Part shown: positions 6,304 through 37,926 of the stretch, one piece after another | Layout of the letters: the number at the start of each line of letters is the position of its first letter | How positions within the stretch are numbered: the stretch's first letter is position 1 | Assembly (NCBI GenBank): GCA_039545335.1 | Contig: BCIN01000001.1 | Coordinates: 3,351,136 to 3,415,135, forward strand | Length of the DNA: 64,000 nucleotides | Source of the DNA: Kondoa subrosea | Taxonomy: Eukaryota | Direction of reading: 5' to 3' | Notes under the pieces: model-generated | The model's input: only the letters and a program-made list of their open reading frames with translations | Databases searched by the model: none | What the model was told of the DNA's origin: nothing | Made by a program: the position numbers and the translations under genes

Positions 6304-7630
6304 AGAAGGAGAAGAGGATGTTTTGAGAGGGAGGGTTTGGTTGATTCGTTTCTTCATGCGTTATTTGTTGTAATTTGTGTCATAGAAGCATTGTAAAGGC
6401 CATTATTGCGCACGCCAGAGCTACATAGGGTGATAACCGTTCGCCTATCCGTGCAAATTTGAAGAATAAGCCAAACACCCTGTGCAAATCGCCAGTTCAG
6501 CTGGGTGTAATGAAAGCGGACAAGTGCTCGCTGACCCTTCTTTGTTGCGATCTATCAAGCCTGGTGCTACAGCGCGTACATAGGTGCAAGTGCAGATGAC
6601 CAGCAGGATGACGAGAAGCAGTGACGAGAAATTGAATAGAGCGGTCTGTCAATCAACTTGTAAGCAAGGCAGGTCCACTACTTAAACCTTTGCTGAGCCT
6701 ACCATTCTTTGGGAGGCGATCTGTCTCGTTGATTTGGATCAAACCTCTCTCATCCTGTTTCAACGACTTGTCTTTTTGACCACGACTGTTCACTTGCTTC
6801 TCTCATTGTCTGCGGCGAGCCCGTCAAGTATTCTCGTCCTCTCCAATGTCTTTAGTTTGGCTATTCCCACGGATTGGGCACGATTGCATACTCTTGCTTG
6901 CTTCCCGAGATGCTCTCTTCCTGGCTCTATCTCTTCGTCTTCGTCCTTGCTCTTTTGCTTACTCTCTTCGTCGTCCGCACTGAGTCGATACGAAGAAAGC
7001 AAGGGCATTCTTGCCTCCTTGAGCAGATATTTCGCATTCCAAGATTCTAGCTGTTGTGTGGTTCCTGAACTTGTATGTACGAAGAGTAGCCAGTATGAGC
7101 ATTGTCGCTATGAGGATACGCATCTCTGCGTCAATAGTCACGCCAGGACCATCGCAGAACCAGTCAACCGAGTTTGTCTTTACTAACCTAACTGACTACA
7201 CTCTTTGATCTCTGATGCATTGCTCTTGATTTTTACGAATCAGTCCGTTCACTCAGATGCTCTCGAGCTTGTGCTCAGCTCGAATGGCAGAGTTGATTGC
7301 CCTTAATTCTACTTAGGCTTCAATCGCCGTCAATGGCCGTAAAGGCTTAGAGCAACGGTATTCTGAGTCTGAGGTGAGAGAGGTTGCAATGAGAACAGTA
7401 GAGTAACCCTACACACACGAGGCGACCAGGACGGCGGCCTCAAGTAGCGATGTTCGGAAGACGACCACCGATAAAGAAGAGAAAGGGATCACTTAGACAG
7501 CAATCGCTTGTGTATATAGCTTGACTTCTCGCTCTTATAAGAGTCTATGCCCTTGCCTTGCCCTTGATCACATAATTGTTGATTTGTCAGCGAACCGTTT
7601 GTTTCCGCTCAACCAGGGCTGCTCTCCCAA

Positions 7631-8481
7631 ATGGAGCTCAATAAGATTCTATCTGAGGTAGGTCTCGAGCCTTACTCACTTAGAGACTTGCTGATCTGGT
7701 GCTCAGCCTTCTGAGGCTCTTTCCAAGGCAGAAATGCCTGCTCCGACGCCGCAGCAAGATGAATCTCGTTTGCATGAATTGGCTATGGTCGCTGCGCAGC
7801 TAGAGACTAATGATAAGTCTGATGGTGCTCGTGAGTCACTCTTTGCGCACTGAAAATTTGCACGCACCTTTAGTCTTACGTGATTCTTTTTCGATAGGCG
7901 GAGGAGAACTTCGACCTACCGAGACCGATTCAACAGGTCAGATCGCTGCTCAGCAACGCATCCGTAAGACTATATTGATGATCGTATGGCTTTACAGACA
8001 ACTCTGGACCTTTGAAACGAGGTAAGAAAGGTCAAGGATCGAACATTGGAAGTGCAGATCGAAGGAAAGAACAAAATCGGGCTGCTCAGCGTACTTTTCG
8101 TGAGAAGAAGAACCTCTACTTTCAAGGCTTGGAACAGCAAGTCACCCTCTCCGAAGCTCATTTTCGTGTCCTTTTCCCTTTTATCAACGAGTAAGTCTGC
8201 TCGTATGAAGCTGTCAGTAAGACTGAACTGGTTGCAATAGCCTCCTCAACCAGAATGCTGCACTTCGGAAAACGATGGGCAGACCAGCGGCACCTTTAAG
8301 TGAATTCACAAAGTGCGAACCTCTTGTTGGACTCCTTGAGACCTACGCTTCTCCTGACACTTCAGCAACAACTTCTTCTTCTTCCATTCACTCCAGCGCT
8401 TCTTCTTCTGGCGATGGTCTAGCTAAGCCTCCTTTGCCCCCTGCTCCTCCGAATGTAAGAATTATAAGGGAGGCAGATTGA
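7631..8481 (+). CDS. Yap/AP-1-type bZIP transcription factor (5 exons)
   Basis: Basic region RRKEQNRAAQRTFREKK (N-x-x-AQ-x-x-FR, Yap-type) at ~8060-8110, followed by a zipper continuing over intron 8191-8240; ATG at 7631. Confidence 0.85.
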
Positions 8482-8851
8482 AAAAGAGATTGTTGGGGGA
8501 ACTGTCATTTCTCACATTGTAATCGTTCAAGCACATTAATTGTAGAATAGGTTTCTGGATTTATGCATTTTGAAATGACCAAATAGCATCATTTTGAGTC
8601 CCGATCTTTCCGCCCTTGCCGGAATTTTCGCTTATGTAGGCGTTTAATCGACTTTCTTTCTTGTTCTTTGCCAGTCCTTGACAAGATCACTGCAATGTGT
8701 TGTGTCGCTGCTTTGCTCACTCATCAATCAAACAATACCTGAGAGTAGACAGACAAGAGAGCACTTGCAGCTGGATACCGATTTCTGGCTCTTTCAAATT
8801 GTGCCAATCCTTTACCGCTTTCAATCTCAACAAGTCATTCTTAAACAGAAC

Positions 8852-9670
8852 ATGTCAACCCTTGGTCCTATTCAACCTGAACCAGGAAATCAGGCTTCCG
8901 ATATAGCTAAAACTTCCCTCAATCCGCTTGAAGAGGCTTCGCCCGAAGCTGGTCCTTCAACCAAACTCAGTCCTGATTCAGACTTATCTAGATCTATTCC
9001 CAGAGAGCAGGAAGAACAGGACGAGGAGGAGGAGGAATATAGCGATGGTGGAGATGATGAACGATCTGATGAGTTGGAAGCAGAGACGGGTTTGATTGAT
9101 TCGCAGAGTGATTCCGGACATGGTCGGTCTCAACTTATCCAAAGAGTAGACCGGTACTAAAATGACGATGTGTATGTAGAGGATGTTGATGATGCTGGTC
9201 AGTTTCTTATGCCTTTTCTTCAATCCCATTGGAATGGTTTTTTGATAAGAAGATTTGTGAATAGCGATTGATCAGCAGATTGCTCAACTTGAAGAACTGG
9301 AAGCTAGTCGACCTGAACAATATAGCACCGCTTTTCAATTGATGAAGAAGTATGTTTTTTCCAGTCCGAAGTGTCTATTCCTTTGCAATACTCTTGCTTT
9401 GTCGGACAACTATTGTTTACTTGGAATAGAAGTCTTCTTGTCGAATTGATGCTAAAGTTGGACTCGTGTTGGAACAGGCTTTGTATAGAGAACAACAATC
9501 TTCGAGCCGAACTCGGTCAAACGCCAATGGATCTTGCACAGTTCATCAGCGGTACTGGCCTAGAAGAGTTGTACAACCGTTACGGCGATCCAGAGACATC
9601 GTCATCTAGCAGTGCACGTGGCAGACAACCGCAGATTGAAGAGCAAAAGAAGGAATCAAGCGAGGATTGA
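8852..9670 (+). CDS. Acidic zipper-containing paralogue of the upstream bZIP, lacking the basic region
   Basis: Exons 8852-9122, 9180-9197, 9265-9349 and 9478-9670 splice in frame; the C-terminal part aligns without gaps to the neighbour's zipper region, with a shared phase-2 intron. Confidence 0.75.
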
Positions 9671-10017
9671 AGAATGGGTAGCGTCTTTTTTGGTTATCTG
9701 GCTGCGACTTTTGGGATTCAGTGGTATGGGCGCATGAGAGAAGGATTGAGTAAATTATACTATGATTTTGCATGAAATTCTATTTAAGTCTTTTGACTTG
9801 AGCGAAGGTCGCGATCGCGCAAGCCAGAGACAGTCATTCGATGGTCGATCAGCAGTGGCAGCGAAAGCACATAGACAGTAGAAGAAGAAGAGGGTGAAGG
9901 CAGAGGAAACAAGGGAAAGATGATCGCCATAGCGGGATTATCGGACTCTCGACCGGAAGCTAGGGTACACAGCTTCGAGCGAGTCACTGCTAGGCTCTGT
10001 CTTGACGAACATCAATC

Positions 10018-12228
<2,211 letters not shown>

Positions 12229-32743: not shown

Positions 32744-35700
32744 TTAGATGCTCGCTCTCCTTATGCGATTCCTCTTCCTAACATTCTCGTTTATCTGAGA
32801 AGGTGAACCATCGACCGTACCGACTTTGGGCAGCTTATCTTCTTTGTGCCACTTCTCTAAGCTCTCCTTCGCGTAGACATAGCCAGCTTCTTGAATCTGC
32901 GTGAATTTGCCAAAGTCCATCGCTACCAATGTACCATTATCAGCTGTGCCTTAATCAGGACAAGGGTAACGCACTGCCAAATTCTGTTACTGGCATTCTC
33001 ATATATAAGACCCCAGGCGTAGTCTGAGCTTCAACCAAAGTTTTGACGCTCGACAAACTGCACAGTATGTAAGTCGTGACTCTTCAAGAGAATCCAAGGG
33101 CACGTACTAAGTTAGTCTACTTTGGATCTCGGTGATTGATGGAACTTGTCCAGCAGTAGACCAGGGATTCCATCGTTGAAACAATACCCACCAGCCAGAT
33201 ACAGAGTCGCCAAATTTGCGTGGAGAAGTGTCATCAATGCTTCCGACGTCAATAGCAAAGATGGTTGAAGCTCCCTGAGACATCATCACGGAAACAGGCA
33301 AGTTATCGAAATAGCCGCTATCACAAGCATGAGACAGAGATCGTGAAGCAGCGATCGACTCACCCATCGACTAGCGGTCAAATTGAGCTGTTATACGGAC
33401 GAAGAATGAAAATTTGGAACACTCACGCAACATATCGCCGTCGTCACACAAAGGTGGAAGTAGACCAGCCAAAGACATACTGGCACGGATGTATCGCCAT
33501 GCATAGCCAGAGGTATGCACTTCCATTCCTGCTCGACACATAAGTCAAGGACTGGCTGACAAACTCGTAGCATTGCTTACGGCTCCAAGTGATATTCGTA
33601 GTGACTGAGTCAAATTGATTAGCTAGATCAGACACTGGAACAGACGAGCTTACCAGCGAAGAAGGATAGCCATAGATCTTCAATATGTAGGTCGTAGAAA
33701 GACTTGAAAATACCACGATTGAATTCATGACCTGTCTAAACAATCAGAAAAAAGCTATGATCTAAAGACGAGTTTCCTTACCGGTAGTATATGCTACGAC
33801 AGGGTAAGTCAAGTCTGCTCATCACAGTCAGCAAGTCGATCTTTGACAAAGCCAAACAGACACACCTGTGATCATGCGCCATAGAGTGCTCATTCGACCA
33901 CTGAACCTCTTCGCTCGACCGTATGTGGTGTACAAGTCGGCATCTCTTGCATATAGTCCGCCAATAAAGGAGCCAATACTTGTCCCGCCAACCATATCGA
34001 TCGGGACTCCTTGTTCCAGCAAAGCCCGAATGGCGCCAATATGCGAGATGCCTCGAGCACCTCCACCTCCCATTACTACACCAATGGACTTTCCACAAAG
34101 CCGTCTCGCTAATCTAGCATAATCGTCCGACAAGCGATTTTGAGGCGGACTGGCAATTGGCTTCCTCGAATTCCGGGTAACATAGCGATCGATTCGGATT
34201 TGAAATTGCTCTCGCATCTTACGCAACGCCAGTACAGCAGCCGGCTCTTTGAAGCGAGGAACAGCTGAGGAATGCGGAACTCCCTCCATTTCACAATGAT
34301 GATGAGCATGAATCCATGGCCGAGCTTGAAGGAAAGGTCTAGTCGTTCCAGGTACAACGAAGCGTTCAGGATGAAGTAGCACAAGTTCTTTCCTAGCGGT
34401 TGTTTTCATGCCGACCAACAGCCTCTCATACTCTCCGATCTGCGGATCTCCGCCTCCATGAGCCACCAGCAAGATACAATCGGCTCTTCTGATACATGTT
34501 TGTGTCCAAGGTGAGCTGACGCTTGTATCGGCGACAAAAAGAACAATGCGATACTTCTGTTCGGTTTCGGCTAGCCAACCAGCCAATTTGAGCTTGCCCA
34601 TTCTAGTGAAGGCGTGTCTCCCCATGATCTGAACAACGCTAGCTTGGTTGAGATAAGCAGCAGGAGCGCCATTATCTTCCAGCGCAGAACGAAGGCGATG
34701 AGCGAATTCTGAAACCGGAACATTAGCTGATACGGGCAGAATGGCAACAGTCTGTCGTAGATATTAGAACAGGTCGTCTCATGTAGGCGCACAACTTACC
34801 TTCAAGTTGAAATTCGTGCGACTTGCATCCATTGCGGCTAAAGTCGAGTTTCCGCTGGCTTTGGCTTTATTATCCACCTCGGTTCGGACTCTTGAAGCAA
34901 TAATACGAGTCATTTGAACAGTGATCGACGGATGTCGAGTAGCTAGCGCATTGAAAAGCTGGGCAGGCATTCTGACCAATTCCGTGTCTCGAATAGCATG
35001 AAGCGTCGCTGAACGAGGGGTTGCAGTGATGCAATCCAGTTCACCAACACTTTCTCCTTGACCGTATTCGCCTTTGATCTCGAGACCACCACTTTGCTTT
35101 TCGGAAATTGCTCGCAATCGCCCTTGAAGACACATATAGAAGGAATTCGATTTCTCTCCCTCACGGTAGATCACTTGGCCAGCATTGACTTGCATCCATT
35201 CCAGCGCCAGATCGATATGCAGTACTACCGCCGAGCATGAGTGAGAGAGACTACCGCTAGAAAACGTTGCGACGCACACAAGGGAGAAATCAAGCTTATC
35301 AAGCGCTTAGCTAATGTGAGTAGTACGATAGGTCTTCGATCTACAATGTTCTCCAAAGCCTTTGCGGGCAAGAAGCCAACATAGACATCGGTTTTGGCAG
35401 TAATTTCGACGTATGATGGATAGCCAGTCAGTGATGATAAATAGCCAGCAATACCTCCAGGTTTGACAGAAAAGAGAAGTGTGGGGTTGCTTGATTTATC
35501 CTCTGTGCTTATTTTGGCAGAGCGACCAGTGGTCCGAGCTGGTCTTGCGTCAGTGAAACTTTGCTGCGAAGGATAGGACGGTTGAGAAGATGCAGAGGCA
35601 TTCATGATGTCGTCATTGGTCTTGGAAACATCTAAGAAACCATCAATCACATAGAACATGCCAGCTCTGCTCTGCCCTTCTTTCACCAAAGTACTGCCTT

Positions 35701-37926
35701 GAGCAAAGTAAAGAATTTCAACTTGATTCTCCAAATCTGCCATGGAAGCCGAAGTCATAGAAGAAGCTGTCATACTCGATTCATCGTCCTTGTTCTGAGT
35801 ACCAAGGAAAGAAAGGGAACCAAAAGAAGAATTGAACATTGCTCTTTGCAGATTCCCGTCTGTAGCACTCATATGCGGTGATGCTGTAGCTGAAGGAGGT
35901 GCGCTTGCAGCTGATTGTAGAAGACCAATGGATTTCGAGATACAGTCCATGACAGCATCTCGCAGATCGAAATCGTGGGAGTTGACGAAACTGAAAGAAC
36001 GCATGTGAACCTTCTGCGCAGTTGAGGTTGAAGACTCTGCTCGAGGTCGTGGAGTAGGTAAAGCACTATGAGGAGATAGAGGAGAGCTCTCTGGTGAGCT
36101 ATGAAGTTCAGTCATGCTCAGAATATCGCCAGGCACGCTGCGCAAATTCGTCGAAGACAGATTGGTCCGCATTCTCAGCTTGATACCATCTTTTGGTCTC
36201 AGTGGGGTTTTTGCTTCGTTCCTGCTAGGTTGGCGGGCATTCATTTTAGGTGAGAATTCAAGATTGAAGTAATCTGATTCGTCAGGCGAGTCGACCATAC
36301 GTGTATCCGGCACAAAGCGTTGTCGTAGTCGCTGCATACCACCAGAGAGATAAAATTCAGGTGGTAGAGAATAGCACGCCAATTCATTGATCGCTTTCTC
36401 CGTTTGAACGATTTCCTTTGTCAATCCAAGATATTTGTGTGCGGTCAGAAGAGTGACTCTCGAAAGTCGAGTGAGAATGACTTGGACGATATGAGCTGCT
36501 GCATTTGGGAACTTCTTGGTCAAGCGTCGGAAAGCTTCAGCAGGAATGACAGCTAGAGTACAGTCGACGGTTGCTCGAGCGATGATATGATCACTGTTCG
36601 GCCCAAGCGGTACTTTGTTACGAGATCTTCTCATCGGGGAGGGACCATCGTCAAGAGCTGAGGCTGAACTTGGCAGATCGTTCAGATCTAGGTCGACTCC
36701 GTCAGGAGAATGATCCGCTCTGAATCCGCCAGGGAAGGTTTCTGCTTCCTCGTCCGCTTGTACGGTAGATGAGCTTGAAACTTCGGAGGAAGATGAAGAG
36801 TTTCGTCTTCTGCTCATGTCCAGACGACTTCTTCGCACCGGCGATGCATGAGCTAAAGGTGATTTTGGCACTTTGCGACGTCGATCTTTGAAACCTTCCC
36901 CAAGCTGAAAGTTGCTCACATCATTGTCTGGATCTCTTGAGCGAAGGGCTTCAGCGCTTAAACGATACTGTTCCTCCGCGCTCGGCGTTGCAGTTCCGCC
37001 ATCTTCATAGCGCAATTTGATATCTTCCGTGAAGAGTCTTAAGATGGTAAAGAGACTACTGAGAGTCCCGCCGCTTTGGACTTCATTCAGTAGTTGAAGA
37101 TTATCGCCTTCCTCGCCGTCATACGAGTCCTGGACAGTAGAGTCTACCCCTATTGATAAGTATTGCGGCAGGAACAGCGTGATATCTCACTTTTATGCTG
37201 AACAAAGACTTGCACAGATCCCTAACATCTCGATATCAACCTTGGCCAGATAGCAGTATCTGGAGACTAACATCGACTACAATATAGAAAGACGGATCCG
37301 AGTCAAGTGAAAGAGTGTCTCCAGCTACTAATCGCTTGGTTTGCAGATATCGAGCCAATTCATGAAAGACAGGTTTCTCGAGATATCCGAAGACCTTGAT
37401 AGCGGACACTGTAGACCCATTAGACTGCTCTAGCAATGACTTGCTATCGAATGAAGACCTACGAAACTCGTCCAGATAATTGCTGAAGCCTGCACCTTGA
37501 GCTTCTTCAGTCGCTACATCTGGATGCAGATCAAACTTCTCGTCTTTCGCCAATGGTAGATCTTTGAGCTTAGTGTATCTGTTCAAGTACTTGACTTTGA
37601 CCAGTGTTGAGATTCCAAATGCGAGCAGGAGAAACAGGACAATGAGCTTCTGAAAGTCTGAAAGCGATGGATCAGAGTGATTTTAGCTATATCAAAGAAA
37701 AAGGACGAACTGAATTGAAGAGTGATTACGCCAGAATAGGAAAGAATAGCTAGAGCAAGACGAGGAACTAGACATCTCCGTCAGATAATTACATTGGCAC
37801 AATTAAGGCTCGCTAACTATCATAGGTGACCAGCTTCAATAGGAACACAATAACTCGAGAGATAGTAGCTATTATGAGCCAGGAAGAGCTGGTGCTCTTC
37901 GTGACAGTAGCTTGGATGGAATCCAT
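32744..37926 (-). CDS. NTE1: Lysophospholipase NTE1 (cNMP-binding domains plus patatin domain)
   Basis: N-terminal TM segment, cyclic-nucleotide-binding repeats ([10 protein letters not shown]), patatin GGGGARG and GGTSIG motifs, DGG-YFDNLP split by an intron. Confidence 0.95.

Follow-up and report, generated by a model that had tools for sequence, protein, structure and literature searches.

Two adjacent genes were analyzed in a window of 64,000 nucleotides (nt) of Kondoa subrosea DNA (contig BCIN01000001.1, positions 3,351,136 to 3,415,135). The window is that whole stretch, and positions below are counted from its first letter. Gene 1 encodes a basic leucine zipper (bZIP) protein, and gene 2, 370 nt away on the same (+) strand, appears to encode an acidic protein with zipper-like heptads and no basic region. 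The two proteins share the end of the zipper and a short tail, and gene 2 is considered below as a candidate zipper-mediated inhibitor of gene 1. The exon models of both genes were built from splice consensus and codon usage only. Gene 1 has the following features.

7631–7657, 7707–7830, 7898–7936, 7998–8190 and 8241–8481, + strand: gene 1, five exons, 207 residues, an open spliced frame with GT..AG introns.
8060–8110, + strand: basic DNA-binding region RRKEQNRAAQRTFREKK, residues 85–101, located in exon 4 by Pfam and 1GD2.
8129–8277, + strand: leucine zipper L108–M140, split by the phase-2 intron 8191–8240, from the heptad table.
8278–8364, + strand: tail G141–S169, GRPAAPLSEFTKCEPLVGLLETYASPDTS, common to gene 2 by pairwise alignments.

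The gene 1 protein has the N-x7-R basic region followed by heptad leucines that is expected of a bZIP. Its exon 4 matches the Pfam family bZIP_2 at 23.9 bits (cut-off 22.3) and reaches 27.4 bits with bZIP_1, just below the cut-off of 27.6. The nearest solved chain is the bZIP of S. pombe Pap1 (PDB 1GD2, E 6.7e-6). The codon-usage score, a log-ratio whose training set was 12 open frames of the window with Pfam support, is 0.298 in frame for gene 1 and negative in its other frames. The basic region aligns with RKEQNRAAQRAFRERK of Yap-like bZIPs from metagenome loci, and its stretch NRAAQRTFR aligns both to Pap1 and to these metagenomic proteins. We take a basic region of the NRAAQRAFR type, with Gln and Phe at the subfamily positions, to be the Pap1/Yap signature. 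Yap1 and Pap1 orthologues also carry a C-terminal Cys-rich domain with an export signal. Gene 1 is like the Pap1/Yap1 family, exemplified by S. pombe Pap1 (1GD2), in its basic region NRAAQRxFR, but differs from it in its length of 207 residues, in having one Cys after the zipper and in the lack of a Cys-rich redox and export domain. The predicted DNA-binding domain of gene 1 is thus Pap1-type, yet the gene is no Yap1 orthologue, because it is short and without the Cys-rich C-terminal domain.

The gene 1 zipper follows its basic region in regular heptads, with V, F, I, N and M at its a positions and L, S, L, L and L at its d positions, with a Pro at an f position. By our own reading of gapped alignments, it is about one heptad shorter than the zippers of metagenomic Yap-like bZIPs. 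The Pro (in LFPFIN) and the hydrophobic residues at e and g are unusual for a two-stranded zipper. The tail GRPAAPLSEFTKCEPLVGLLETYASPDTS had no match in Pfam, in Atlas or among homologues. Gene 2 and the spacer that precedes it have the following features.

8482–8851, + strand: spacer between gene 1 and gene 2, with a CT-rich tract at about 8655–8674, a negative codon score in all three frames and no repeats.
8852–9122, 9180–9197, 9265–9349 and 9478–9670, + strand: gene 2, four exons, 188 residues, an open spliced frame with GT..AG sites.
9005–9197, + strand: acidic segment, about residues 52–96, including the 18-nt exon, which occupies the place of the gene 1 basic region.
9265–9514, + strand: zipper-like heptads I98–L137, split by the phase-2 intron 9350–9477, from the heptad table.
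9515–9601, + strand: tail G138–S166, GQTPMDLAQFISGTGLEELYNRYGDPETS, common to gene 1 by pairwise alignments.

Codon usage separates the proposed exons from their surroundings. All exons of both genes have a positive in-frame score that exceeds those of the two remaining frames, and the off-frames are negative except for one frame of the five-codon microexon. Three flank and spacer stretches are negative in every frame, and the third intron of gene 2 is at or below about zero in all frames. The whole coding sequence of gene 2 scores 0.323, compared with a mean of 0.325 (standard deviation 0.135) for 146 coding windows, and −0.340 and −0.826 in its other frames. Its first exon sits in a 170-codon open frame. 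The open frame directly 5' of the gene 2 ATG, 8675–8851, scores −0.139; none of the 146 coding windows scores as low, which favors a start of its own at 8852 over a fusion with gene 1. Together, these results support gene 2 as a separate coding gene with its own start at 8852. The three minus-strand open reading frames (ORFs) that lie antisense over the locus score −0.085, −0.114 and 0.086.

The two models could instead belong to one transcription unit, in which the last exon of gene 2 is an alternative terminal exon of gene 1 or the two genes are joined by a read-through fusion. A consensus-like donor, GTAAGA, is present at 8455, 27 nt before the gene 1 stop, and acceptors at 8674 and 8848 join it in frame to gene 2. 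These joins keep the frame open, and the introns of both genes before the last exon are phase 2. However, a single unit would require introns of 220–1287 nt, against 49–128 nt for those modeled, the open frame 8675–8851 scores like non-coding DNA, and gene 2 has an ATG of its own followed by coding signal. We consider a single unit highly improbable. One of the acceptors, 8674 or 8848, follows a long CT-rich tract, which may be a promoter element.

A different concern is that gene 2 is not a working gene and represents a decaying partial duplicate or a mis-modeled open frame. The weak points of the model are the 18-nt exon 9180–9197 and an unusual GTCGGT donor, together with a last exon whose codon score of 0.112 is low. 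No homologue of gene 2 was found either. A phmmer search with its last exon as query found no match among 1.84 billion representatives, a metagenome scan matched 601 pattern stretches, none of which was confirmed, and an Atlas search gave nothing above 0.76. Searches for relatives of gene 1 were also blank (11 candidates for exon 4 and 1293 for exon 5, none scored), and Atlas gave no usable match for it. These blanks say little, because even the NTE1 protein of the window is at most 52% identical to anything in the collection searched. Set against a decayed or mis-modeled frame are the open four-exon frame with canonical splice sites, the 170-codon frame around the first exon, and a whole-gene codon score equal to that of confident genes while flanks and introns are negative. 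We regard a non-functional gene 2 as rather unlikely. The putative 18-nt exon (EDVDDA) has a TACTAA branch-like site about 20 nt 5' of its acceptor. Skipping this exon keeps the frame, so two isoforms of gene 2 are conceivable.

The predicted gene 2 product has a net charge of −33, an isoelectric point of 4.05 and a mass of about 21 kDa, and its exons had no Pfam match at E up to 1. The initial annotation had set the basic helix of gene 1 opposite acidic strings at the matching place in gene 2, and both are present. In the 28 residues that precede the aligned zipper Leu, the net charge is −8 in gene 2 compared with +5 in gene 1, and over 35 residues it is −11 compared with +7. By this comparison, the position of the basic region is taken in gene 2 by acidic sequence, as is expected of an acidic-zipper (A-ZIP) protein.

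An unnoticed exon that restores a basic region to gene 2, which the initial annotation had named as a point that could overturn its proposal, was not found. The basic signature N..[ASQ][ASQV]..[SCFYA][RK] is absent from the six frames of 8400–9700, and all 10 frame-keeping single-intron alternatives for the join of exon 1 to exon 3 are acidic or neutral, none basic. A hidden basic exon was rejected on these two results. Readings rich in Lys and Arg near gene 2 occur only in the +1 frame of the acidic tract, in an off-frame near the 3' end and in minus-strand stretches. The first of these, at 8982–9095, is a GA-rich tract in the +1 frame of exon 1 that reads …SRKNRTRRRRN…, carries no bZIP signature and scores negative in codon usage. 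This reading probably reflects the known frame relation of Glu and Asp codons to Arg and Lys codons.

The gene 2 heptads have I, E, Y, M, N and L at a and I, L, R, A, L and L at d, with a Pro at position 113. We compared both proteins to our own zipper profile, made from 21 intron-free Yap-like bZIP blocks. Gene 1 scores 46.6 bits. Gene 2 residues 98–134 align ungapped on the zipper columns at a weak 4.2 bits, a score reached by 13 of 1000 shuffles. The alignment is in register with Yap-type zippers and ends on the family motif L..EN..LR. The hydrophobic register continues into the acidic part for about one heptad only (I98 at d, I102 at a), and further 5' the core positions are E, D, S and S. 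Upstream of I98 the residues are rich in Ser, Gly and His, unlike a designed amphipathic Glu helix. The A-ZIP likeness proposed in the initial annotation thus extends to the exchange of a basic for an acidic sequence and, in heptad register, to about one heptad before Gly-, Ser- and His-rich sequence takes over.

The relatedness of the two genes is concentrated in their 3' halves. Over the zipper end and tail, 16 of 62 residues are identical without gaps, reproducing the alignment reported earlier. BLASTP of gene 1 against gene 2 gives 30.8 bits (E 6e-6; 15 of 57 identical, ungapped), and 22.3 bits (E 1e-4) when only the last exons are compared. Of 2000 global shuffles, 10 match the Smith-Waterman score of 65, as do 29 of 2000 block shuffles, a test less generous than BLASTP because both proteins are biased in composition. 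When the first 43 residues of the last exons were searched against the 849 ORFs of at least 40 residues in the window, each was the best non-self match of the other, with a score of 50 compared with a next score of 37 for the gene 1 query and 33 for the gene 2 query. The introns 8191–8240 and 9350–9477 are both phase 2 and split the same aligned codon (D128 in gene 1 and K125 in gene 2), as had also been noted before. By our estimate, an identical intron position would arise by chance about 1 time in 200, and this evidence is independent of the alignment. AlphaFold2 single-sequence models of the last exons show three short helices each at similar places, but are too uncertain to use (mean predicted local distance difference test scores of 60.2 and 61.7).

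The ungapped similarity, the reciprocal best matches and the phase-2 intron in the same aligned codon make it well supported, at the level of sequence, that the 3' halves of the two genes, comprising the zipper end and the tail of about 30 residues, are paralogous. The N-terminal halves show no similarity, the other BLASTP matches being at most 11.9 bits with E of at least 8.3. The paralogy proposed at first for the two genes thus stands for the 3' halves (BLASTP, reciprocal matches and intron), but not for the N-terminal halves. Gene 2 has two introns where exon 4 of gene 1 runs continuously, and its exon 3 starts exactly at the end of the gene 1 basic region (gene 2 A97 aligned to gene 1 K100). 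No repeats were found between the genes at the DNA level. Tandem duplication of the whole gene is not well supported, since the 5' halves differ in sequence and exon structure and no DNA repeat is left. An old duplication restricted to the dimerization half, or to the last exon, and joined to a new acidic 5' part would explain the pair no less well than a whole-gene event with later replacement.

Could the similarity be due to chance or to convergence between coiled coils, the two genes being unrelated? The identity is only 26% over about 60 residues, 0.5–1.5% of shuffles reach the score, and the match of gene 2 to the zipper profile is weak. Unrelated genes would not be expected to be reciprocal best matches among 849 ORFs, nor to share an intron of identical position and phase while lying adjacent on the same strand. 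Moreover, the similarity continues for about 30 residues beyond the zipper into the non-coiled tail. Chance or convergence is, in our judgment, improbable.

The metagenome data offer a further view of the shared intron. A scan with gene 1 exon 4 found 154 stretches that encode relatives, which are generic Yap-like bZIPs (four inspected closely). Loci of 80 of the 154 were kept, and 32 open bZIP blocks were extracted from them, 30 of which read RKEQNRAAQRAFR[ED]RK (the exceptions are L050 and L052). The gene 1 tail is absent from the kept loci, and tblastn with gene 2 at E up to 1 gave no match in them. In 11 of the 32 blocks (L039, L043, L045–L047, L052, L053, L061, L070, L072 and L074), the zipper-like frame breaks right after ..VKD, ..VHD or ..VTD. 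This suggests a conserved intron at the zipper start of Yap1-type genes that has no counterpart in gene 1. If the break is an intron, then the intron position shared by gene 1 and gene 2 is no general feature of the family.

The DNA-bound form of a bZIP protein is a dimer that has two basic regions. In the mechanism we propose, gene 2 would be a lineage-specific partial paralogue of gene 1 that has kept the C-terminal zipper heptads and the short tail and has an unrelated, acidic N-terminus. Its zipper would pair with the gene 1 protein or with another Pap1-type bZIP, giving a dimer that has one basic region or none and that could not clamp a palindromic site. Gene 2 would then act as a titrating inhibitor of the Id, LITTLE ZIPPER (ZPR) or CHOP kind. 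The acidic stretch beside its zipper could add attraction to the basic region of the partner, as in designed A-ZIPs. We put forward this zipper-mediated titration of gene 1, which would involve expression, pairing and inhibition in turn, tentatively, as the most natural of the mechanisms considered but as possible rather than probable. The more specific proposal of a natural A-ZIP is doubtful. Here, partial duplication of a Pap1-type bZIP and recruitment of an acidic 5' part would have produced a linked inhibitor whose zipper picks out the adjacent factor and whose acidic arm masks the basic region of that factor as a DNA mimic.

Pairing of the two proteins finds some encouragement in their zippers. 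An Asn occupies the same a position in both, and in both the final two d positions are Leu. By the bZIP pairing rules of Vinson and colleagues, these shared residues would favor pairing of one with the other. Together with the shared tail, these features make pairing between gene 1 and gene 2 plausible.

Several points weigh against the inhibitor interpretation. Both zippers contain a Pro, at different places, and hydrophobic residues at e and g, and in gene 2 the core of the middle heptads includes E, R and A. Because of these prolines, the hydrophobic e and g residues and the poor middle core, a canonical two-stranded pairing of gene 1 with gene 2 is not assured. By our own reading, the g–e' pairs of gene 2 (E..R) would stabilize its pairing with itself no less than its pairing with gene 1. 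Amphipathic character appears to span only about one heptad of the acidic segment. The similarity 5' of the shared intron is weak, since the BLAST match begins only 10 residues before the intron and nearly all of the similarity is 3' of it, and the shuffle probability is modest (p ~0.005–0.015). To these are added the lack of any relative of gene 2 in the searches above and its last exon, at or below whose codon score lie only 2% of coding windows.

Some of these points would equally suit a gene 2 that is real but uncoupled from gene 1, that is, one that after partial duplication became an acidic coiled-coil protein with an unrelated role, its partner being itself or some other protein. Its own E(g)–R(e') pair favors self-pairing, its core differs from that of gene 1 in three of five heptads, its N-terminal 96 residues are unrelated to gene 1, and the duplication is old, with no DNA similarity left. 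On the other hand, the best-kept part of gene 2 is the zipper end and tail, i.e. the dimerization surface, and the a-position Asn is conserved in the same heptad. We consider an uncoupled role unlikely.

An opposite role is also conceivable. Yeast Met4 is a bZIP-family co-activator that does not itself bind DNA. Gene 2 could likewise be a positive adaptor that brings an acidic activation domain to a DNA-bound factor on which its zipper docks. Its long Asp- and Glu-rich N-terminal region resembles acidic activation domains, and gene 1 is small, with no obvious strong activation region. However, bZIP dimers that have only one basic region are usually poor DNA binders, so that a further DNA-bound protein would be needed, and nothing points to one. 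This makes a co-activator distinctly unlikely.

The inhibitor interpretation can be compared to known systems. Designed A-ZIPs, as described in PMC5662769, replace the basic region with an amphipathic acidic extension that joins the basic region of the partner in a coiled coil and stops DNA binding, and the zipper sets the specificity. Gene 2 is like these proteins (e.g. A-ZIP53; PMC5662769) in that zipper-like heptads are kept and an acidic sequence stands at the place of the basic region. The A-ZIPs of that text are engineered proteins in which a Glu-rich amphipathic helix keeps the heptad register along the entire basic region, whereas the acidic part of gene 2 is natural, rich in Asp, Glu, Ser and Gly, in register for about one heptad, and encoded by exons unrelated to gene 1.

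Natural inhibitors of related logic are known from other families. Helix–loop–helix (HLH) proteins that lack a basic region keep their partners from binding DNA, according to PMC12258188. In PMC9638782, Id and ZPR proteins are described as dimerization modules that lack a basic region and inhibit their partners. Gene 2 resembles Id and the basic-less HLH proteins in retaining a dimerization module without a basic region, and would resemble them in inhibition as well. As described in the two sources, these proteins differ from gene 2 in having an HLH fold, in being animal or plant proteins and in having no acidic replacement. The plant ZPRs, of 7–16 kDa, attach to the zipper of HD-ZIPIII factors, eliminate their DNA binding and form a feedback loop with their target (PMC9638782). 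Gene 2 is like a ZPR in having zipper-like heptads without a DNA-binding region and would be like it in binding gene 1. It differs in that the ZPR target, as described there, is an HD-ZIP and not a bZIP, and in that gene 2 is of about 21 kDa with no feedback site seen in its promoter. PMC9638782 also defines a microProtein as a single-domain protein of <20 kDa related to a larger target. Gene 2 is related to gene 1, and its size, about 21 kDa and 188 residues compared with 207, is borderline against this limit.

Literature searches aimed at natural A-ZIPs or basic-less bZIP inhibitors turned up none among the designed A-ZIPs, plant papers and unrelated work that they returned. CHOP/GADD153 is a natural member of the bZIP family that pairs with C/EBP proteins and blocks their usual sites. 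It retains a basic region, though a defective one, whereas gene 2 has none. Overall, gene 2 fits the logic of a basic-less dimerization partner well and that of an A-ZIP in part only.

The pair lies in fungal DNA with short introns and a G+C content of about 45% over the window. An SMC gene is 5' of the pair, and enolase is 3', followed by a DEAD-box helicase, PFK, LTV1, NTE1 and GEN1. The spacer 8482–8851 presumably holds the gene 2 promoter and 5' untranslated region. Candidate DNA sites for gene 1 would be of the types TTACTAA, TTACGTAA and TGACTCA. TTACTAA, which we take to be the Yap/Pap1-type site, occurs once near the pair, at 7180–7186, about 450 nt 5' of the gene 1 ATG, and six times in the window in both orientations. 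None of the six falls in the presumed promoter of gene 2. The site at 7180–7186 is a possible lead towards autoregulation of gene 1, although not a significant one. The window had no Rfam match. The enolase gene (10018–11200, + strand) seems, when read by eye, to have several very short exons with short introns at its 5' end, and an in-frame stretch within its 182-residue open frame resembles intron read-through.

The NTE1 open frame (33828–37186, − strand) was compared to a collection of 5.8 billion proteins. Among its ten best matches, the highest identity is 52%, to Mixia osmundae, and other Pucciniomycotina follow at 41–48%. Judged by this protein, the host seems to be a basidiomycete that branches deeply in the Pucciniomycotina, and the collection contains no closer relative.

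If gene 2 does not titrate gene 1, the pair would amount to an ordinary bZIP gene beside an ordinary gene for a small acidic protein specific to the lineage. If it does, gene 2 would be a naturally occurring equivalent of the engineered A-ZIP reagents and a fungal case of regulation by a truncated transcription-factor paralogue, in the style of microProteins. It would show that such a regulator can arise by duplication of the dimerization half only. The two genes would then form a genetically linked pair of activator and inhibitor, a two-gene on/off module in a little-studied basidiomycete lineage.

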